Source: Escherichia phage LPEK22 | Sequence record: OK283619.1 | Reading direction: 5' to 3' (one strand) | Length of the DNA: 64,000 nucleotides | Shown here: positions 13,205 through 60,307 of the stretch, one piece after another | Position numbering within the stretch: the first letter of the stretch is position 1 | Layout: each line of letters opens with the position of its first letter | The notes under the pieces: generated by a model | Databases searched by the model: none | Seen by the model: the letters and a program-made list of their open reading frames with translations, nothing else | What the model was told of the DNA's origin: nothing | Made by a program: the position numbers and the translations under genes

Positions 13205-16201
13205 TCAACCTTTCTTGCCCATCATGGACAACAGATTAACTCGACGTTTATGAGACCAACCAACCACATCCAAGATAGACTGAATTGGCTCTATAAAGGT
13301 CTTTTCAAACGTGGTGTGGTAATCCACCCATTTATCCAATCCCAATTCTGGAGGAAGGAAGTCAGGGAAGGCTATGCGATCATTCCCCACAGGATTGCCA
13401 GGTTTCAGGTTGATGATTTTAACCTTATCGCCAGATTCGATAGGGGGAAGACCGAGATCTTCGTGCTTATCGATCAGCTTGTTGTACATAATACAAGCCT
13501 TGGCAGCAAAGTGCGTACCGCTGATGTAATTCCCGTTCGCGTCTAACCACTTCTCAATATCGCTTACACCAGATGCCTGAGCGATATCATCCACGGTGAG
13601 TTCCATATATTCCTTTTTGTATCCAGCGATTAATTCCTGAACCTCTGCCTCAGTACCGAGCAGGACTTTCTCATAACATTTAACCAGACGCTCACGACAC
13701 CACTCAGGAGTGGTTGATTTACGCGCTTCCAGACCTTTGAATTTGATCTTTGGCTTCTCATACTTGATGCCTTCGCTATCGTATACTGCCATGCAATACA
13801 TCTTCTTGGCTCGCCATACAGCAGACGATGCGATGACCTCACGTTCCCAGACCATGCGCTGCTCAAACCCGTTCATGGTATTACACAACAACTGCGCCCA
13901 TTCACTGGTTTTTGGCTGGTAATTCTCTTTGATCCATTGGTCAATGTTATCAACGAGTTTATGATGATCCTTTTCTTCAGGCCACAATTGCTTGACCAGG
14001 CGTTCAATGCAAATGTAGTTGGAGTCTGTATCACCTGCGATAACAAAATCCTGACCAGTAGTACCACAAAGTTTGTTCAGATAATCATCAGTGTGGCGTT
14101 TGTTCCATTTATTGATCAACTGGCCGGAAGTGGTAATTGCTTCAGCGATGTTGATGTTGAAGTATTCTTTAAACCAGACGTTAGAAATTGCACCATATCC
14201 TGCGTTCATCAAGATCTTCAGACCTTGTTGTAACGTATCTTGGGCAACTCCCAAATCTTCCCACTTGTGCATGACTTCAGTCAGGTGATCAAGGTCGATA
14301 TGCTTGTGTTCTTCATACCATTCAGGATCGTAGAAACGAGACTTCATGGCAGATTCAAGGTGGAAATCACCTTTAGACATTTCCTTACACCAACCAGCCC
14401 ATTGCTCATACTTCAGACCAGTTGCTTTCTCTCCTTTACGGTCAGCGTATATGCCTCGCATAATTTCGGAAAGGAAAGACATCTTCTCATTACTGAAGAA
14501 TTGAACGTTCGGGGTAAACGAAACGTTATATCGGCGTAATGTTTCAAAATGGAATTCACCCAGCGCGACCAATTCATCAACAACTTGTATGCGTTCATCA
14601 ATAGCACGCTGCAGCTTGTCGTGAAGATTTTTGAGATGACGGCGCTTGTTCATAGGCGTTGTCATATCATTCATCGCTTTGGTCAATTCTTCACACATGG
14701 ACTCAATGATATCGCGACGTGTGTGCTTGTCAGAAACGATAGTCTCAGGACCAAGGTTGTATTGCTGTATGATGTGGGGATACAGGGAGTTTAAGTCCTC
14801 AGAGAATACCCAGAAATATATCCCTGGTGCAACCTCCATGACATATGCGCCTTCAAAGTCCGTTGGACCATCATATACACGCTGTATTTTAGGGACAATC
14901 CCCTTTTCATAAAGACGATAGTAACACATCGCCAGCCATGGTGCTACAGTCCCAAGACCGTCTTCATAGTTAGATTTGGTGCGATACGCCAATACGAACA
15001 TCAGCTGTATCAAACGCAGCTTTTGTTCTAAACGCCACACGAGTTTGACGTCTTTGATACCATATCGGGTGTGTTTGCAATAATCATTAAAATATAGATC
15101 ATACAATGACTTGCTTTCACTATAATCCAACTTCTTCTCACCGAGTTCACAATAAGCGATCCAATCCAGTGAGTATTTTTCGCGGGTTGTGTACGTGTGT
15201 TTCTTGTAAACTTGCATGTAGTCCATCATAGGACAACCCACGAATTGATAAGAAGTCACGTCGCCTTTACGGTCTTTGATGAAACGTTTCTTGAGTTTGC
15301 CCCAAGGACTGAGGCGCTCTGCCTGAGTTTCACCGAGAACCTGCGTAATACGTTCAACCAAGTACGGGCTATCAAACGTTTCGATGTTCCAGCCAGTCCA
15401 ACCATCAAATTGACGTTCAGACCAATAATCTAAGAAAGCGCGAAGAAGTTCTTGTTCAGTCGTGTATTCTTTGTATTCAACCTCAAGACCACCTATCTCT
15501 TCATCATTTGGATCATATTTGAATTTATGGCGATCCTTAGAACACGGCATACCCCAGACATAGAACTTGTTGGTGTTCATGTCTTGAAGCTGGATGAGCG
15601 TAATAGGGAAGGCGGCATTCATGTTCTGTGTGATCTTACCATTACTATCAATGATAGGGAACTGGTCAGTCACGTTGTTGGAAATAAAGGAACCTGGGAA
15701 GTGCTCTCGAACGAAATCATGGTTGGCCAACACTTGCTTATGGAATCGGCGAACACGCGCCTCGCTCCCCTTAAACGTGTGGGATTCAATCGTCGCGTGA
15801 GGAAATGGGCCTTTAGTCATTTCTCCATCGCGCCACCCAGCCGAGAAAACTTCGATATCCACGTTGGCGATGTGAATATTTGAGTAATCGGGGGTAATCA
15901 TCCCAGGAAAACTATGCGCTATGAATTGATATGCATAATCCGTTTGTCCGTAAACGGCAGCGCCTTCGACCTCCTTATATTCCTCCAGATAGTTGTCGGC
16001 GTCACGCATTGACGCAAATTTTTTAGACACCAACGGTTCATTGAGGAGGCCAATCTTTTCAACTTTGGAATAATCGGCTGTGGGTAAATACAAGGTGGGT
16101 TCGAATTTCTTACGCAACATACGGCGATTGCCGTTGTCGTCTGCAATACGAATCAGAAGGTCGTTACCCTGTCGGGCAACGTTCGTATAGAAAACAGTCA
16201 T
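13205..16201 (-). CDS. DNA polymerase, family B
   Basis: ORF trimmed to ATG at 16201 (MTVFYTN...; GGAG RBS); exonuclease DIE motif (NVDIEVFSAG), motif B KILMNAGYGA, motif C VIAGDTDSNYI. Confidence 0.9.
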   Translation of the reverse strand: MTVFYTNVARQGNDLLIRIADDNGNRRMLRKKFEPTLYLPTADYSKVEKIGLLNEPLVSKKFASMRDADNYLEEYKEVEGAAVYGQTDYAYQFIAHSFPGMITPDYSNIHIANVDIEVFSAGWRDGEMTKGPFPHATIESHTFKGSEARVRRFHKQVLANHDFVREHFPGSFISNNVTDQFPIIDSNGKITQNMNAAFPITLIQLQDMNTNKFYVWGMPCSKDRHKFKYDPNDEEIGGLEVEYKEYTTEQELLRAFLDYWSERQFDGWTGWNIETFDSPYLVERITQVLGETQAERLSPWGKLKKRFIKDRKGDVTSYQFVGCPMMDYMQVYKKHTYTTREKYSLDWIAYCELGEKKLDYSESKSLYDLYFNDYCKHTRYGIKDVKLVWRLEQKLRLIQLMFVLAYRTKSNYEDGLGTVAPWLAMCYYRLYEKGIVPKIQRVYDGPTDFEGAYVMEVAPGIYFWVFSEDLNSLYPHIIQQYNLGPETIVSDKHTRRDIIESMCEELTKAMNDMTTPMNKRRHLKNLHDKLQRAIDERIQVVDELVALGEFHFETLRRYNVSFTPNVQFFSNEKMSFLSEIMRGIYADRKGEKATGLKYEQWAGWCKEMSKGDFHLESAMKSRFYDPEWYEEHKHIDLDHLTEVMHKWEDLGVAQDTLQQGLKILMNAGYGAISNVWFKEYFNINIAEAITTSGQLINKWNKRHTDDYLNKLCGTTGQDFVIAGDTDSNYICIERLVKQLWPEEKDHHKLVDNIDQWIKENYQPKTSEWAQLLCNTMNGFEQRMVWEREVIASSAVWRAKKMYCMAVYDSEGIKYEKPKIKFKGLEARKSTTPEWCRERLVKCYEKVLLGTEAEVQELIAGYKKEYMELTVDDIAQASGVSDIEKWLDANGNYISGTHFAAKACIMYNKLIDKHEDLGLPPIESGDKVKIINLKPGNPVGNDRIAFPDFLPPELGLDKWVDYHTTFEKTFIEPIQSILDVVGWSHKRRVNLLSMMGKKG

Positions 16202-16280
16202 TGTTTGTCTCCGGTTAACCGTGCCGTTAGCACGTCCCCGTAATTTAGCCGAGGAACGTTCAATGACCAAGGAGTTTATT

Positions 16281-16853
16281 ATGGCAATCCCCTTTGTGAG
16301 TATGATCCCAGGGGCGCTCAAGCAACTCTGGAACCTCGGGACTGATTTGATCCAATACAAGCGGGAAGTTGTTCAGGCCAAACACGATGTCAAGCTAGAG
16401 GCTATCAAGTCCTCCTCAGATTGGGAGCTGTCTAAGATCACCGAAGTCGGCGGGTCTTGGAAAGACGAATTCTGGACTATCGTGTTAGCTGTTCCCGCTA
16501 TCCTCGTCATGACTGCTCCGGTTGTGGAACTAATTCTGTTCCCTGATGAGTATCATAAAGGGGATTTCATCAAAGCAGTAATCGACGGCCTCCAGGCGCT
16601 CGATACCACACCTGAATGGTATACCTATTCGTTATTGACAGCAATTAGTGCATCATTCGGTATCAAGGGGTATAACCATTACAAAAGCAACAGCCGGAAG
16701 GCGCAAGCTGTGGATGCTCTCAAGCAGTTTGGGGTCAAAGTGGTTAACAAAGATCCCACTGTTGTTACTCAGTCGGGTTCTCCCGATCTTGAGTCTGCTC
16801 CCCCAGCTGGGTCTACTGCGACCTCTGGTGCGTGGCCTGATCTGAAGAAATAA
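16281..16853 (+). CDS. hypothetical membrane-associated protein
   Basis: AAGGAG RBS 7 nt before ATG 16281 (MAIPFVSMIPG...); hydrophobic segments. Confidence 0.55.
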   Translation: MAIPFVSMIPGALKQLWNLGTDLIQYKREVVQAKHDVKLEAIKSSSDWELSKITEVGGSWKDEFWTIVLAVPAILVMTAPVVELILFPDEYHKGDFIKAVIDGLQALDTTPEWYTYSLLTAISASFGIKGYNHYKSNSRKAQAVDALKQFGVKVVNKDPTVVTQSGSPDLESAPPAGSTATSGAWPDLKK

Positions 16854-17153: not shown

Positions 17154-17203
17154 TCTAATTGTAGTACGAACAAACAACAATCTGAAGAGAAGGAAATACA
17201 TCA

Positions 17204-17760
17204 TGGCAATCGAAATTATCGCTCAATCCAAATCCGGCAAAACTGTATTGTTCGGCACCGAAGAAGGCCGTGTAATCACCACTTTGGGCACAGTTGACGG
17301 CAGCAACCCCGTAAAAGGCGGTCGCTTCCTGGTTGAGTACGGTTCTCGTGTCGTGATGGTAAGTAAAATTGATGGGCGTGATATCACTGCTCCTCGTCAA
17401 GAATTCTTTGATTCACGTTCTGCCGCCATGCAATTCTTTTTCTTCCAGAAACGTCACGAACTGTTCGTTGAAGCGAAAGACGCAGGTCTGGACGACGCAA
17501 CGGCTGAGCTGATTGCCGAAGGTAAAATGACTCTTGAGACTGCTCTGGGAGACATGGATTACGAAGCCGAAGCGCATTATATTGAATATTCCGCATATCA
17601 GAACGAATGTGAAGATGATCCGGAAGATGATGGATTTGATCCAGATCTTCACGGCGGCGAGGATGACAATACTCCTTCTCTGGAAGTTATCATGGCTGGT
17701 GGTCAGGCCGCTTGGGAATGGCAGAATGAAAAGAACGCATGGTTGGATTCCCGCCTCTAA
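17204..17760 (+). CDS. hypothetical protein with acidic C-terminal region
   Basis: AAGGA RBS then ATG 17204 (MAIEIIAQSKSGK...); acidic stretch ECEDDPEDDGFDPDLHGGEDD. Confidence 0.55.
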
Positions 17761-17969: not shown

Positions 17970-18512
17970 ATGAATATACCAAAAACTCCTGTCCGTATTG
18001 CCGTCGAGCCTCTGCTGGTTGATGCTGAGAATGCTGCTGAGCAGTACGCGAACAAAGTCATCAAGAACATAATGGACGATCTGGCATCCAACGGCTGGGA
18101 CGTCGAGAAGTGCGCTCCGTGGCCATCTTCGGTTGGTGTCAAGTTTGGTGATCCAGATTACCAACGAATGAAATCAAAACATGCGCTCTACCGTTCTTTG
18201 ACCCAGGCAGTGAATCCTTCTTACATACCTGGGAAGCCGGATATTGTCAAAGCTGATCCTGAGCGCCATGCTCTGTTTGTCAAAGAAGCACGTCGAAACG
18301 CTGCGATGCAATATGAGTCTTTCATTTGTAAACTGGAAGACAAAATTGGTGGGCACAGCGCGGCTGTGCTGAATGGTTCCCATATATGGGGTTATTCAAT
18401 CCTAACCGTGACTACACCAGAGGGGATCGAGCGCTGGAAGACTCAGACGATTATCAATGTGTCCAAGCTGGGCAAACTCTTTAACCAATATCCAACGAGG
18501 AAGGTGAAATGA
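17970..18512 (+). CDS. hypothetical protein
   Basis: ATG 17970 (MNIPKTPVRIAVEP...) preceded by GAAGGACTATATC. Confidence 0.55.
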   Translation: MNIPKTPVRIAVEPLLVDAENAAEQYANKVIKNIMDDLASNGWDVEKCAPWPSSVGVKFGDPDYQRMKSKHALYRSLTQAVNPSYIPGKPDIVKADPERHALFVKEARRNAAMQYESFICKLEDKIGGHSAAVLNGSHIWGYSILTVTTPEGIERWKTQTIINVSKLGKLFNQYPTRKVK

Positions 18513-18883
18513 TGAAAAACTTCGCACAAGAATTACAGACTACGATTGACCAGGCTCAGATTTGGGAAGCCATGGGGATAGTTGAAAAAGCCGTTGATAT
18601 CTTTGTTTGCAAAATGAAGAAGCAACTCGTTTCCCAAGCAAATCGCGGAGTTGAAATTGATGACATGGTGTACGCTGTTGGTGGCCACAGGTTTGACGAA
18701 ATATTAACCGCATTTCAACAGGCATATAAGTCTCAAAAATACCCAACAGACAAGCAAGTCGAAAAGTTCAAAACATTGTTGGTGGCGAGTCTTCTGAAGG
18801 AAGGTTTGAAGTTCGAATTACACAAGGATGAAAGAACAGATGTCGTAACAATGAGATTCACAGTACACACAAACGATATCTAA
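18509..18883 (+). CDS. hypothetical protein
   Basis: 124-aa ORF; GAGGAAGG RBS; ATGA overlap with upstream gene. Confidence 0.55.
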   Translation: MMKNFAQELQTTIDQAQIWEAMGIVEKAVDIFVCKMKKQLVSQANRGVEIDDMVYAVGGHRFDEILTAFQQAYKSQKYPTDKQVEKFKTLLVASLLKEGLKFELHKDERTDVVTMRFTVHTNDI

Positions 18884-18884
18884 A

Positions 18885-18909
18885 ACAAAGGGGCATTAAG
18901 CCCCTTTGT
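18885..18909. terminator. bidirectional terminator between convergent genes
   Basis: ACAAAGGGG-CATTAAG-CCCCTTTGT hairpin flanked by A-runs and T-runs. Confidence 0.5.
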
Positions 18910-19368
18910 TTATTTCCCATCCCAAAAGTCGTCTTCATCGTCTACTTCATCAAACGCAGAATCCAATTCTTCGTCAGAGTACTCTGGAAGACGACCATTC
19001 TGTTTCAGATATTCAATTTCGTCATCTTCCAATTGAAGATCCGTGGCTATAAACAGCGCCCCTGTTTCTTCATCGTGCTCAATACTGTAAGATGTATATT
19101 CAGCACCCTGGACTGTAATGATGATAGACGTCGGGTCTTCTGGGTCCACATGGGCTTCAAACGGGATACCGTCAATCGGGGCGTCCTCTAAAAATGTAGC
19201 AAGAGCTACGGCGGCGCGGACGACGTCTGTCCCTTGCACGGAAGCATAAATCTCTTCAGCGCCTGTTTCCCCGCGCTCAAAGAATTCAATCGTAGTCCCG
19301 TCTTGAACACCAGTCCAGATAGGCATGTCTGCTGGGGAATCCGCTTCAAATAATTTCGAAATTGGCAT
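18910..19368 (-). CDS. highly acidic protein
   Basis: 152 aa, very rich in D/E (EDDEIEYLKQNGRLPEYSDEELDSAFDEVDDEDDFWDGK); GAGGA RBS. Confidence 0.55.
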   Translation of the reverse strand: MPISKLFEADSPADMPIWTGVQDGTTIEFFERGETGAEEIYASVQGTDVVRAAVALATFLEDAPIDGIPFEAHVDPEDPTSIIITVQGAEYTSYSIEHDEETGALFIATDLQLEDDEIEYLKQNGRLPEYSDEELDSAFDEVDDEDDFWDGK

Positions 19369-19403
19369 GGTAATGTCCTCTTGAATAAACCGCTTTGGAC
19401 TAT

Positions 19404-19853
19404 TTAGGCTTCTCTGGTCGCCAACCCTGGCTTAAACACCACCATTTCCTCAACGTTATTGGCACTCATAGAGGCTATAGAATCGAACCCTTTGTTGATA
19501 AGTTCTTTCACATTATCATGTATCTTACCAGGCTTTATCCCCAACTCTCGCATTTTATTTTCCCACACCGAAACATTGTTGGAATCTATTACAAGAGTCT
19601 TCTTGGCCTTGACACGAAATGCCATGACAATAGGTTCACCAGATTGACGATAGCGCACGGCATTTTCTGCGTAGATCTGTGCCTTTTCTGGATCCCCCGT
19701 CAGGTAAAACCCAGCACCCATCGTACCAGAGTCAGTCTGGCCAAATTTTTCAAAATCAAAGATATCGAATTCAACATTAGACCCATGATACAAAACGATA
19801 TTCGTAAAATCAGGTAACGTTGATTCGCGATAAAATTCTAGAAAGGTTTTCAT
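19404..19853 (-). CDS. hypothetical protein with H-G-S motif
   Basis: 149 aa; LYHGSNVEF, GAGFYLTGD and a later EE pair, weakly reminiscent of H-Y-E ADP-ribosyltransferase/Tpt1-like folds. Confidence 0.5.
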   Translation of the reverse strand: MKTFLEFYRESTLPDFTNIVLYHGSNVEFDIFDFEKFGQTDSGTMGAGFYLTGDPEKAQIYAENAVRYRQSGEPIVMAFRVKAKKTLVIDSNNVSVWENKMRELGIKPGKIHDNVKELINKGFDSIASMSANNVEEMVVFKPGLATREA

Positions 19854-19892
19854 AGATACCCCACACTGGTCGTATGGGGTATTTAGGATGGA

Positions 19893-21086
19893 TTAGCTGG
19901 GGACAAACTCATTCACAGGGACATGTTCAGGTATTGATAATTCAGGACAAGCAGCTTTCATCGCTTCCAGATATGGCTTGCTACCCACGATCCAAAACAA
20001 TGAGTTCTCATTAAGCAATTCTGGTTTGTGTTCCTGTATCCATGTCATCACCTTCCCTTCATAACGAGGATGCAACTCAATATCTCCCCACTGGTAATCC
20101 ATGAGGTCGTTGTAACGAACCCAATTAGTGGTATGAAGATCCCAATGGTGTACCTCAAAGCGAGGAAGCACGATATCCGGCTCGTTCTTTGGCCTGATAC
20201 CACTTAGGAGGCCAGCCAGCGAAACGCTCTTAGAGGCATGCTGAAGATCCTTCTTACCATACACATAATCTGGGTTGTCGTGATAGCGACGAGTGAAATC
20301 AGTTATGTGAGGGAGGTTTGCTTGCTTACCGATAATGCGCAAACGACTTTCAATGAAATCTAATCGGTTAGGTCCAATCCCGATCAGATAGACATTCTTC
20401 AGATTTGGTTTCGGATGCATCGCTAAACCTGTCAGGATACTGGTGCATGAATTACAAGAACCAGCAGGAATGATCAGATCAGTGATATGGTCTGGGATAT
20501 TGGCAACCTGCTCGCCACCCAGCATATGGAATCCAGCAATGCGTTCTGGTGAATGAACGGTATGATCCAATGTAATGCCATATTCCAGATAATACGCCTT
20601 TGGATTTAATTGTTCAATGAGTTTCTTACAGCGCGGCTGAATGGTGCTATTGTAACCAGATCCAACAAAGTTGAACTCACTACCAAACCATGCTGACATT
20701 GAAACCATATCATGATTCATGCATGTGGTTGGTTTAGTGGCACCCAGCACAGTGGTTGTCTTGCCGCCGAAATGCCGTGAGACTGCCGTCGCCATAGGGG
20801 ACTGCGGACTACCAACTACAGTACCATGGATAAGATCTGGGGATCCTCCAGCTTTCAGATGCTCCATCATGAGCCAGATGGCCTGGCGGAGTTTGCTGCC
20901 ATTGATCCCCTGCTTGCCATTCATATAGCATGACAAAGGCGCGAAGTAATCTTCACGTTTGAACCAAACCTGCTGATTGGTTTCTGGATTGGCAATAAGT
21001 TCGCACGGGGTGTGTTTGTAGAGATAGTCTTCCCAGTGAACCAGATTACGGTCGAGGGAAAGGGTATCGAAGATGGTTTTGTTCAT
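19893..21086 (-). CDS. PLP-dependent enzyme (fold-type II, ACC-deaminase-like)
   Basis: 397 aa; N-terminal KREDYFAPLSCYMNGKQGINGSKLRQ resembles the ACC deaminase/D-cysteine desulfhydrase lysine-containing motif; AGGAG RBS. Confidence 0.55.
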   Translation of the reverse strand: MNKTIFDTLSLDRNLVHWEDYLYKHTPCELIANPETNQQVWFKREDYFAPLSCYMNGKQGINGSKLRQAIWLMMEHLKAGGSPDLIHGTVVGSPQSPMATAVSRHFGGKTTTVLGATKPTTCMNHDMVSMSAWFGSEFNFVGSGYNSTIQPRCKKLIEQLNPKAYYLEYGITLDHTVHSPERIAGFHMLGGEQVANIPDHITDLIIPAGSCNSCTSILTGLAMHPKPNLKNVYLIGIGPNRLDFIESRLRIIGKQANLPHITDFTRRYHDNPDYVYGKKDLQHASKSVSLAGLLSGIRPKNEPDIVLPRFEVHHWDLHTTNWVRYNDLMDYQWGDIELHPRYEGKVMTWIQEHKPELLNENSLFWIVGSKPYLEAMKAACPELSIPEHVPVNEFVPS

Positions 21087-24065: not shown

Positions 24066-24480
24066 TCTATTCTTACTTTCGTAAACACTCTTTATTCTGC
24101 ATGAAGATCCAGGGCAGGATCATAACGATCGTAAGTTTTTGGATGAGACCCGTTCTTGATGCTCACCATCCGACCTTCCCAACTAGCGCGAATTCTGTTG
24201 GAAATCACCACCCAAATATTCTTCATAATATAGAACCCTTCAACTATGTTTATTCGCTTCGATCGCCCTTAATTGGGCGTCCGCGTCAGCTTTGGTGCCA
24301 TGTGTCCCAAGAACATTAGTCTTGGTGTGGTCAAGGACAACCCACTTATCGCCTCGCTTTTCAACAAACTCAACAATCTCTTTGTTGTCGGTAGCGAGAC
24401 CATCCCACTCAGTAAGAAAATCACCGAACGTTTTCATCATACTCACCAATTGTTTATTGAACAACTGGTTTATTTAGTGG

Positions 24481-31620: not shown

Positions 31621-31631
31621 CTAAATACCCC
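31621..31631 (+). promoter_or_regulatory. late promoter motif CTAAATACCCC with downstream 5'UTR hairpin
   Basis: CTAAATACCCC then inverted repeat TACCCCTA...TAGGGGTA immediately before ATG 31665. Confidence 0.5.
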
Positions 31632-58752: not shown

Positions 58753-59421
58753 ATGATGAAACTGTTGCGTGAGATCACAGCGATAGGGAAGGATCTTCAA
58801 ATCGGTGAGGATACGACCTCAACTGGTGGGAAGGCCATGTTCATCGAAGGTCCGTTTGTGATGTGTAACCAAGTAAACCGGAACGGGCGTAACTATGATC
58901 TACAGAAAGTGGGTATCCCTGCTGTCGAAGCATATGACAAAGAGTATATCCAAGATCGTCGCGCAATCGGTGAAGTCACACATCCTGACTATCCTTTCCC
59001 TAATCTGGTGGAAGCAGCGCTCAAAACCGAATCCCTTCGCTGGGAAGGCACCAATGCCATCGGTCGGGCGCGAATTTTAAATACACCAAAAGGCCAAATC
59101 ATACGTGCATTGGCTGAAGCAGACTTCAATCTGGCCGTGTCTACACGTGGTCTGGGTGAGACCAAGTCAGTAAACGGTTATGACGACGTTCAACCTGGCT
59201 TTATGCTCACCGCTGTTGATGCAGTCGACCGTCCTTCTGGACAAGTTTGTTATGTTAAGGCTGTGAGTGAATCTGTTGAATGGCAGCTTGATGAGGCTTC
59301 TGGTATTTGGATGCCTCGGGATGTTAAAGGAAACGTTGTTGATCAGTTGGTGAAAGCCAATATTCAAGTAGAAGACGACTTCCTGCGCCGCCTTGATGCA
59401 GCATTGAATCATCTGGGCTGA
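58753..59421 (+). CDS. prohead core protease (gp21-like)
   Basis: 222 aa; position before scaffold and capsid; GPFVMCNQVNRNGRNY...GEVTHPD...STRGLGE fits the T4 gp21 pattern as recalled. Confidence 0.65.
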   Translation: MMKLLREITAIGKDLQIGEDTTSTGGKAMFIEGPFVMCNQVNRNGRNYDLQKVGIPAVEAYDKEYIQDRRAIGEVTHPDYPFPNLVEAALKTESLRWEGTNAIGRARILNTPKGQIIRALAEADFNLAVSTRGLGETKSVNGYDDVQPGFMLTAVDAVDRPSGQVCYVKAVSESVEWQLDEASGIWMPRDVKGNVVDQLVKANIQVEDDFLRRLDAALNHLG

Positions 59422-59467: not shown

Positions 59468-60307
59468 ATGAAACCTGAATTGCAAAAACTGTTTGAAGGC
59501 GTTAATGGCCTCAGCACCGATTTCTTGGACAAAGTATCTGGTCTGCTGGAATCTAAAGTTGAAGCCGCCCGTCTGCAAGCTATTCAAGAAACTGAAGCGG
59601 CTGGTAACGTTGAGCGCCTGACTCTGGTAGAAGCCCACCAGAAAGAAGTCGCAGACCTTAAAGAAAATTTCACTCTTCAGTTGGCGGAAAAAGTTGATTC
59701 GTTCCTCAACGCGGTTGTTGAAGAATGGGCTAACAAAAATGCTCCGGCTATTGACGCTCAGATCAAAACCGAAGCTGCTGAACGCTTCCTCACTGGTTTC
59801 TCTAATGTTCTGAAAGAAGCAGGTGTTAGTTTCGCCACTGACCCAGACGGTCAGATTGCAGCTCTCACCAACCGCCTGGCTGAAGCAGAGCAACGCGCCA
59901 GCATTGCCAATACTGAATTGGCTCAGCTCAAAGAAAGTGAAACCAAACGCCAGCGCAATGATGTCATTGATCGTATTTGTGAAGGTATGGTTGACACCAA
60001 GAAAGACACTGTTGTCAACCTGCTGGAAGGTATTGAATTCCAGACCGAGTCTGAATTTGAATCCCGTGTGCGCACCTTCCGTAACCTGGTAGAAGGCAAA
60101 GATGACTTCTCTGATAAAGTCGGCAAAGACAATGAAAAAGGCAAGCCGGATGGCGACAAGTCTGAAAAAGACATCAAAGAAGGTAAAAAACCGAAGAAAG
60201 AAGGTGAAGCCGACGATGATGACGATGACGATGATGACAAAGACGAAGTTGGCAAAGAAGTCAACGAAGCCGTCCGTCGCCAGATCAGTGCTTTGCTGAA
60301 CGGCTAA
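59468..60307 (+). CDS. prohead scaffold protein (gp22-like)
   Basis: 279 aa, highly charged, ends in EADDDDDDDDKDE; immediately upstream of the major capsid gene. Confidence 0.6.
   Translation: MKPELQKLFEGVNGLSTDFLDKVSGLLESKVEAARLQAIQETEAAGNVERLTLVEAHQKEVADLKENFTLQLAEKVDSFLNAVVEEWANKNAPAIDAQIKTEAAERFLTGFSNVLKEAGVSFATDPDGQIAALTNRLAEAEQRASIANTELAQLKESETKRQRNDVIDRICEGMVDTKKDTVVNLLEGIEFQTESEFESRVRTFRNLVEGKDDFSDKVGKDNEKGKPDGDKSEKDIKEGKKPKKEGEADDDDDDDDDKDEVGKEVNEAVRRQISALLNG

Follow-up and report, generated by a model that had tools for sequence, protein, structure and literature searches.

A conserved, highly acidic late virion protein of Ackermannviridae phages with a scaffold-like leader

In this study, we analyzed a gene located at 18910..19368 (minus strand) of a 64,000-nucleotide stretch of DNA from Escherichia phage LPEK22 (sequence record OK283619.1), hereafter the window. 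The coding sequence (CDS), obtained from the open reading frame (ORF) call and its translation, starts with ATG and encodes a highly acidic protein of 152 amino acids (aa). Our results give good support to its being a conserved, abundant and late virion protein of the Ackermannviridae, and we place it in a known class of phage proteins that are packaged in the virion. Its leader resembles the N-terminus of the prohead scaffold, and we assign a probability of roughly 0.35 to the reading in which the protein resides inside the head, loses its leader to the prohead protease and leaves the particle together with the DNA, to serve as a polyanionic decoy. Over the 5 kb tested, the window shows 100% identity to Salmonella phage kage (MT074476, Kuttervirus, Ackermannviridae), where the gene is named kage_199; its orthologs are gp115 of phage Sajous1, ORF174 of Dickeya phage LIMEstone1 and Vi01_184 of phage ViI. 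Sequence records currently annotate the product as 'hypothetical' or 'putative structural', the latter label going back to LIMEstone1, and the 2024 review of the Ackermannviridae mentions neither this gene nor the adjacent gene for an ADP-ribosyltransferase-like protein (ART).

The first-pass annotation, made from the sequence alone, had described the product as dominated by Asp and Glu, and both this description and the C-terminal sequence that it gave proved right, as the translation indeed ends in DEVDDEDDFWDGK. The protein contains 21 Glu and 20 Asp (27%) against 3 Lys and 3 Arg, which amounts to a net charge of -35; the computed pI is 4.05, a value that probably represents the lower limit of the calculator, since exactly 4.05 was returned for every ortholog. 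At the typical Asp/Glu frequency of 12.5%, the chance of finding at least 41 such residues in 152 is about 1e-6. With a net charge per residue of -0.23, it is the most acidic product of all window ORFs of at least 80 aa (the runner-up has -0.11), and the Sajous1 ortholog gp115 is likewise the most acidic member of the whole Sajous1 proteome (runner-up -0.148). Orthologs from six lineages all have net charges between -30 and -37. Along the chain, the core (residues 17-125) carries a net charge of -22 and the tail (residues 126-152) one of -11.

The presence of this protein in virions has been documented in three phages. In LIMEstone1, ORF174 and the ART-like ORF173 were both reported as 'confirmed structural proteins'. 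The reported coverage of ORF174, 12.5%, corresponds exactly to one 19-aa tryptic peptide, EETGAEEIYAGVEGTDVVR (residues 33-51), and this single peptide is near the maximum detectable because ORF174 yields only four tryptic peptides (5, 27, 19 and 101 aa). The same paper found structural counterparts in ViI for all 12 of its unknown structural proteins, and Vi01_184 is annotated in ViI as 'phage associated protein'. In CsCl-purified virions of Sajous1 (PMC10892097), gp115 was represented by 31 spectra and gp116 by 10, compared with 33 for the neck and 24 for the baseplate tube; we checked by coordinates and translation that gp115 is the acidic protein and gp116 the ART. As the 31 spectra of gp115 come from just three detectable tryptic peptides, its spectra per detectable peptide (10.3) are second only to those of the major capsid protein (46.2) and exceed those of the tail tube (7.4), the portal (3.7) and the sheath (3.0), which suggests that the acidic protein is present in the virion in high copy number. 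The proteomes of phages phiD3 and EspM4VN report only 10 and 18 abundant proteins, respectively, and are hence uninformative in this regard.

Expression of the gene late in infection is indicated by its upstream region. The first-pass annotation had placed the product among the small, acidic early proteins of phages, a premise that is contradicted by its presence in the three virion proteomes and by a CTAAATA late-promoter core at 19401..19407 (minus strand), some 33-39 nt 5' of the ATG. This core belongs to the published late/structural motif of the Ackermannviridae, CTAAATAcCcc (PMC7283392). The copy upstream of the acidic gene is complete in LIMEstone1 (CTAAATACCCC), whose annotated late promoters precede both ORF174 and ORF173; the form in Sajous1 (CTAAATATCCCA) is fuller than the degenerate one in kage (CTAAATAGTCC). 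Elsewhere in the window, the ART gene and three tailspike/tail-fibre genes each have the full motif upstream. The core is enriched ahead of virion-protein genes in Sajous1: CTAAATA occurs in the 80 nt upstream of 16 genes, and the virion proteome includes the products of 13 of them, among these tail fibres, sheath, neck and scaffold, versus 60 of 214 genes overall (Fisher p 6e-6). In the intergenic region preceding the acidic gene, a scan for sigma-70 promoters revealed nothing promoter-like, and the sole nearby match on the minus strand (19148..19121, 9/12) lies within the CDS, downstream of the start codon. A Shine-Dalgarno-like AAGAGGA is found at 19377..19383 (minus strand), its AGAGGA 8 nt 5' of the ATG. 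On the basis of the upstream core and of the virion proteomes, the assignment of the gene to the late class is well supported.

The copies of the full late motif in the window also show a regularity of their own. The motif CTAAATACCCCATA (at 19886 on the minus strand and at 31621, 35232 and 37442 on the plus strand) forms the 5' arm of an inverted repeat of 8-10 bp, whose 3' arm, TATGGGGTAT or TGGGGTAT, lies just 5' of the ribosome binding site or the ATG of the ART gene and of the three tailspike genes. The 'cCcc' in the published motif is explained by this inverted repeat.

The indications on where in the virion the protein might reside come from its N-terminus. The head module of the window is of the T4 type, with a gp21-like protease, a gp22-like scaffold and a gp23-like capsid protein. 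The prohead maturation protease is encoded at 58753..59421 (plus strand; phrog_207, E 1e-69) and the scaffold at 59468..60307 (plus strand; phrog_237), the latter having gp22 homologs in cyanophages and vibriophages. The scaffold begins with MKPELQKLFEG in three genera, and that of a Vibrio member, about 33% identical, has ...KTLFEG. The leader of the acidic protein, MPISKLFE (codons 1-8, 19345..19368, minus strand; delimited from alignments), contains the same KLFE tetrapeptide, and M1, S4, L6, F7 and E8 are invariant in the 22 sequences aligned. In T4, the gp21 protease cuts core proteins, internal proteins (Ips) and Alt after (L/I)-x-E, with sites such as ITE-6/LTE-619, and removes short N-terminal propeptides, and a 10-residue leader, MKTYQEFIAE, sends internal proteins to the core. 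The tripeptide I-A-E is common to the T4 scaffold gp22 (MLKEQLIAE), to Inh (MIDKDYIAE) and to this capsid-targeting sequence (CTS) of the Ips. L6-F7-E8 fits the (L/I)-x-E rule, being invariant in the 22 sequences and kept in distant orthologs, with L-K-E in Serratia phage Kevin. We infer that L-F-E is a candidate site for the prohead protease, with the predicted mature N-terminus at Ala9, ADTPADMPIWTGVQDGTTIEFFER. Judging from this leader, the acidic protein is probably head-internal and carries a scaffold-like sequence that the protease could cleave.

Beyond the leader, an AlphaFold2 model built from the 22 sequences (mean predicted local distance difference test (pLDDT) score 76.8, predicted template modeling score 0.72) divides the protein into three parts. 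Residues 1-16, ahead of the first strand, have low pLDDT; residues 17-125 (18994..19320, minus strand) form a confidently modeled alpha/beta core with three strands, a helix, four strands and a helix; and the acidic tail (residues 126-152; 18913..18993, minus strand) is predicted to be disordered from about residue 131 onwards (residues 131-152 all score below 50 in pLDDT). Within the tail, D144, D147, F148 and W149 are invariant (D-x-x-D-F-W; codons 147-149 at 18922-18930). Both the S-(K/T)-L-F-E-(A/S) of the leader and the D-(D/E)-D-F-W of the tail are kept in orthologs only about 35-45% identical, the ortholog of phage phiEa2809 having nine residues after FW. We also considered a reading of the C-terminal DDFW as similar to the tip of single-stranded DNA-binding proteins (SSB), which was rejected, as the number of residues after FW varies among phages from 0 to 9 and no such tail is seen in the phage's own SSB. 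No match to the acidic protein was obtained in Pfam, NCBIfam and PADLOC scans; a sequence profile search of the PDB returned only AliC (E 0.04, chance level), and a search of BFVD only the protein's own family. Foldseek against the PDB gave a best E value of 0.12 and no significant fold relative; the only recurring compact matches of this type were to type III secretion chaperones (ExsC, ShcA, STM2138, AvrPphF-ORF1), all below significance. As modeled, the core has no known fold relative.

The protein matches phrog_3852, a family without assigned function, over its full length. A tblastn search placed it in 277 phage records, which belong almost without exception to enterobacterial Ackermannviridae; scaffold homologs with at least 60% identity were found in 271. 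When 1.84 billion representative proteins were searched with a profile, 7 clusters were retrieved, all from the same narrow family, which leaves no remote relatives to exploit, and no paralog was found in the genome. As far as these sequence searches reach, the family is confined to the Ackermannviridae and nearly universal there. Between kage and Sajous1, the gene has pN 0.0056 and pS 0.44 (pN/pS 0.013), and in the comparison with LIMEstone1 its pN/pS (0.17) lies below those of the scaffold (0.31) and ART (0.29) genes; from these substitution patterns, it is a real gene under strong purifying selection. The alignment of 22 sequences has 64 invariant columns, 20 of them occupied by Asp or Glu. 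Two peculiarities of the database records came up in this comparison. In the reference sequence of Vi01_184, residues ~41-63 are out of frame relative to all other family members, a difference that is probably due to a compensating pair of sequencing errors in the reference genome. Besides, genes with 100% identity to those of Salmonella Kuttervirus occur in OR844942 ('Enterococcus phage Efm 3-10') and in a record named for a 'Pseudomonas' phage, both of which are likely mislabelled or contaminated.

The gene directly upstream and co-oriented, kage_200 (19404..19853, minus strand), encodes the ART, a 149-aa protein similar to ADP-ribosyltransferases of the ART-PolyVal type (PF18760, E 2e-10, above the curated cut-off). 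It has its own CTAAATACCCC late motif at 19880-19886 (minus strand) and may be co-transcribed with the acidic gene, since no terminator separating the two was detected. The ART leader, MKTFLEFYRE, is close to the MKTYQEFIAE of T4: its CTS score is the joint best of 572 start sites in the window and the best of the 214 CDSs of Sajous1. Given that leader, and its detection in the virions of LIMEstone1 (ORF173) and Sajous1 (gp116, 10 spectra), the ART looks like a packaged and ejected ADP-ribosyltransferase, a functional analogue of T4 Alt. Its putative H-Y-E motifs (LYHGS, GFYLT, EEMVVF) are kept in LIMEstone1 ORF173, and it also matches the PADLOC candidate families PDC-M13A/B.

Of the four best CTS matches in Sajous1, three (gp116, gp215 and gp216) are virion proteins, so that the Ackermannviridae appear to use a T4-like targeting leader. 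The products of the gp214-gp216 operon of Sajous1 (MW021757) are abundant in virions, with 196 spectra for gp214 (795 aa, pI 8.5), and have F-x-x-(F/Y)-x-x-E leaders (MAIPSFLNFLEE in gp214, MKPFIEYFKE in gp215 and MKGFPDFLKE in gp216), by which they are probably internal head proteins of the Ackermannviridae; the Sajous1 source paper reads gp215-217 as a ferritin-related tail entry system. Sajous1 gp82 also carries such a leader (MKSFQDYLED), and its product was not detected in the virions. In the window, a 65-aa ORF at 24240-24437 (minus strand) starts with MKTFGDFLTE, with L-T-E at positions 8-10, and partially matches the uncharacterised phrog_3684; its leader makes it a candidate small internal, Ip-like protein. 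Two genes upstream of the acidic gene (19893-21086, minus strand) lies the ortholog of ViI gp226 (YP_004327553), a pyridoxal-phosphate-dependent decarboxylase. The ViI enzyme has been characterised experimentally: it converts O-serinyl-thymidine to 5-NeOmdU and completes thymidine hypermodification. Several records misannotate its ortholog as threonine ammonia lyase or deaminase.

How a protein of this kind might act can be outlined in two steps. First, the leader (M-x-x-S-K/T-L-F-E), which copies that of the scaffold, would bring the acidic protein into the prohead core, and the gp21-type protease would cut after L-F-E, leaving a mature form of about 144 residues with a net charge of -35 in the DNA-filled head. 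Then, the protein would be ejected with the DNA and might act as infection begins, drawing host DNA-binding proteins to itself as a polyanionic decoy. It would correspond to early mimics such as Ocr, but in a form made beforehand and delivered, and would be functionally equivalent to the injected Ip proteins of T4. The decoy role is proposed by analogy with those Ip proteins, which inhibit Type IV enzymes attacking modified DNA; following this analogy, acting as a decoy for host DNA-binding proteins at DNA entry would be the most likely role of an abundant delivered polyanion. The genomic context of the gene, which adjoins that of the CTS-bearing, virion-borne ART and lies near the gene for the 5-NeOmdU decarboxylase, is in line with this proposal. 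It is tempting to speculate further that capsids are pre-loaded with many copies of a folded, DNA-like polyanion, which is injected with the hypermodified genome and jams the DNA-binding defences or the nucleoid proteins of the host before phage expression; we consider this extension doubtful. A packaged DNA mimic is a combination undescribed for proteins of the Ocr/ArdA type (early and cytoplasmic) or for the T4 Ips (basic and target-specific).

Several observations weigh against the decoy proposal. Searches with Pfam, the PDB sequence profile and Foldseek turned up no known DNA mimic that the protein resembles in sequence or fold. A protein with a net charge of -35 packed alongside DNA is electrostatically awkward. 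The leader departs from the CTS consensus of the family, M-K-x-F-x-x-(F/Y)-x-x-E, its CTS score of 7 being within background; Kevin has LF-LKE in place of LFE; and the kage protein has Asp at position 10, a residue that in T4 blocks processing at that position. In addition, spectral counts are a crude proxy of copy number, and proteomics gives presence in the virion, not position. Finally, near-universal presence and purifying selection resemble those of a core virion component more than those of an accessory gene in an arms race; such conservation is unlike that of the hypervariable T4 Ip proteins and would suit a purely structural role equally well. With regard to the proposal of a DNA mimic made in the first-pass annotation, the size and charge density of the protein fit, whereas likeness in sequence, profile and fold to known mimics is lacking, and its status as a DNA mimic is neither supported nor excluded. 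That annotation had opposed the mimic to an ordinary enzyme or structural protein, and the protein goes half way towards the latter in being a virion component.

The main rival of the decoy reading is a structural or assembly component inside the head, without any host target, which would tune DNA packing, offset basic internal proteins or organise ejection. We regard this as quite possible, albeit tentative. Its near-universality (277 records versus 271 for the scaffold), a purifying selection at least as strong as that on the scaffold, its apparently high copy number and its scaffold-like leader are all expected of such a component; T4 gp67 provides a precedent for a very acidic core protein, and several basic proteins were co-detected in virions (gp214, pI 8.5, 196 spectra; gp216, pI 8.0; gp154, pI 11.4). 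However, scaffold-type proteins are normally degraded and expelled, whereas the acidic protein persists with a folded domain, as witnessed by the LIMEstone1 peptide 33-51. The positional equivalents of gp67 and gp68 are already present between the portal and protease genes (gp153 and gp154 of Sajous1), and hhalign comparisons with T4 gp67, gp68, gp22 and Inh revealed no homology to the acidic protein (probability 0.2% for gp67 and at most 1% for gp67, gp68 and gp22). Moreover, the gene lies outside the head module, about 39 kb away within the window, and adjoins that of a likely ejected enzyme. A function on behalf of such co-packaged cargo, in which the protein would be a chaperone, inhibitor or neutraliser and would hold the adjacent ART or the basic CTS-bearing proteins in an inactive or soluble state up to delivery, somewhat like the acidic chaperones of type III secretion with their effectors, seems unlikely to us. 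The gene is found directly downstream of that of the virion-borne ART and is possibly co-transcribed with it, the protein is small, acidic and alpha/beta, and the conserved D-x-x-D-F-W of its tail resembles a short docking motif. Nevertheless, ART occurs in 226 records against 277 for the acidic protein, some 50 of which thus have no ART, and a different gene is upstream in phiEa2809, Kevin and the metagenomic relative L006; the acidic protein also seems more abundant than the ART, with 31 versus 10 spectra from far fewer detectable peptides. The lack of strict co-occurrence weakens in particular the idea of an obligate ART partner.

An external position in the virion, either as capsid decoration or as an accessory of the neck, tail or baseplate, is improbable in our view. 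It would be compatible with the proteomic data, with the deviation of the acidic leader from the phage CTS consensus and with the nearby kage_203/204, which encode tail-associated virion proteins ('tail needle knob' and 'phage associated protein'), but it can hardly explain an invariant KLFE shared with the scaffold in a flexible leader, nor spectra per peptide far above those of low-copy baseplate and neck proteins. The reading closest to the first-pass annotation, a cytoplasmic DNA mimic of the Ocr/ArdA/Arn type that is expressed early, right after DNA entry, is largely refuted and retains very little probability. The size and charge density typical of such mimics speak for it; against it stand the late promoter core with no intergenic sigma-70-like site upstream, the finding of the protein in virions in three studies and the absence of any Pfam or PDB match to Ocr, ArdA or another mimic.

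Downstream of the stop codon of the acidic gene, a hairpin resembling a bidirectional terminator (AAGGGGC-loop-GCCCCTT, with T-runs on both strands; 18887..18906) is common to this gene and the convergent gene at 18509..18883, and the LIMEstone1 annotation has a terminator at the equivalent position. The first-pass annotation had also pointed to a plus-strand gene in the vicinity, kage_195, as having a strongly acidic C-terminal segment. The acidic segment exists, but it spans residues ~101-160 of 185 and is therefore not at the extreme C-terminus, and the gene starts at 17203 and not at 17204. The product of kage_195 (17203-17760, plus strand; phrog_4823, function unassigned) has 38 Asp/Glu versus 16 Lys/Arg overall and a net charge of -21 in that stretch. 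It is encoded on the opposite strand and in a separate transcription unit relative to the acidic gene, its product was not detected in the Sajous1 virion proteome, and nothing ties it to the acidic virion protein. Further away, the ORF of the family B DNA polymerase (13205-16360, minus strand) was called mechanically from a TTG, giving 1051 aa, while the annotated gene starts at an internal ATG (2997 nt, 998 aa); in LIMEstone1, the polymerase gene is interrupted by two introns with homing endonucleases.

The ViI-like phages of the Ackermannviridae are widely isolated and have been used against Salmonella, E. coli O157, Klebsiella and Dickeya, and no function is assigned to over half of their genes. 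If the delivered decoy were true, the principle of injected anti-restriction known from T4 would hold in a second phage family as well, one whose DNA is hypermodified in a different way, and DNA-mimic-like proteins could come ready-made instead of being expressed early, with a bearing on host-range prediction and on the engineering of therapeutic phages. Furthermore, the T4-like leader found in the ART, in Sajous1 gp215 and gp216 and in the 65-aa ORF offers a simple rule for recognising which proteins are ejected, and may also serve as a tag to bring foreign proteins into the capsid.

Among known systems, the closest parallels to the acidic protein are found in T4. The Ip and Alt proteins of T4 are late products that enter the core by means of a short (L/I)-x-E leader, are trimmed by gp21, are kept in the head and are injected; Ip1, Ip2 and Ip3 each block a distinct Type IV restriction enzyme that attacks the modified T4 DNA. 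The acidic protein is similarly late, virion-borne and high-copy, with a short flexible leader that contains L-F-E, in a phage that has proteins of the gp21 and gp22 types and hypermodified DNA. Unlike the T4 Ips, which are described as highly basic and hypervariable, it is strongly conserved and more acidic than any other protein of its proteome; its leader is similar to the start of the scaffold and not to the MK(T)F..F/Y..E of the ART, gp215 and gp216, and it shares no sequence or fold similarity with them. As regards T4 gp67, this prohead core protein is extremely acidic (35 of its 80 residues are Asp or Glu), with a poly-acidic C-terminus and an N-terminal L-I-E; however, its length is only half that of the acidic protein, its gene lies between those for portal and protease, and it is processed into fragments, whereas the acidic protein has a folded core, is encoded elsewhere and persists in virions. 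The Dar system of P1 and the polyvalent proteins, in the latter of which the ART-PolyVal domain of the adjacent ART was defined, involve anti-defence proteins pre-loaded in the capsid and delivered with the DNA, and one record labels the ART ortholog as 'DarB-like'. The Dar proteins are large multidomain enzymes with no homology to the acidic protein, and the link is by neighbourhood only. The structural matches to class I effector chaperones of type III secretion (ExsC, ShcA, STM2138) are below significance.

Ocr and ArdA are small proteins with about -0.2 to -0.25 net charge per residue. The acidic protein resembles Ocr, ArdA and Arn in size and charge density and, by analogy, may have a role against DNA-binding defences. 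Whereas these mimics are early products and not virion components, the acidic protein is late and packaged, with no profile, sequence or fold similarity to them; delivery inside the particle would be an alternative route to presence early in infection.

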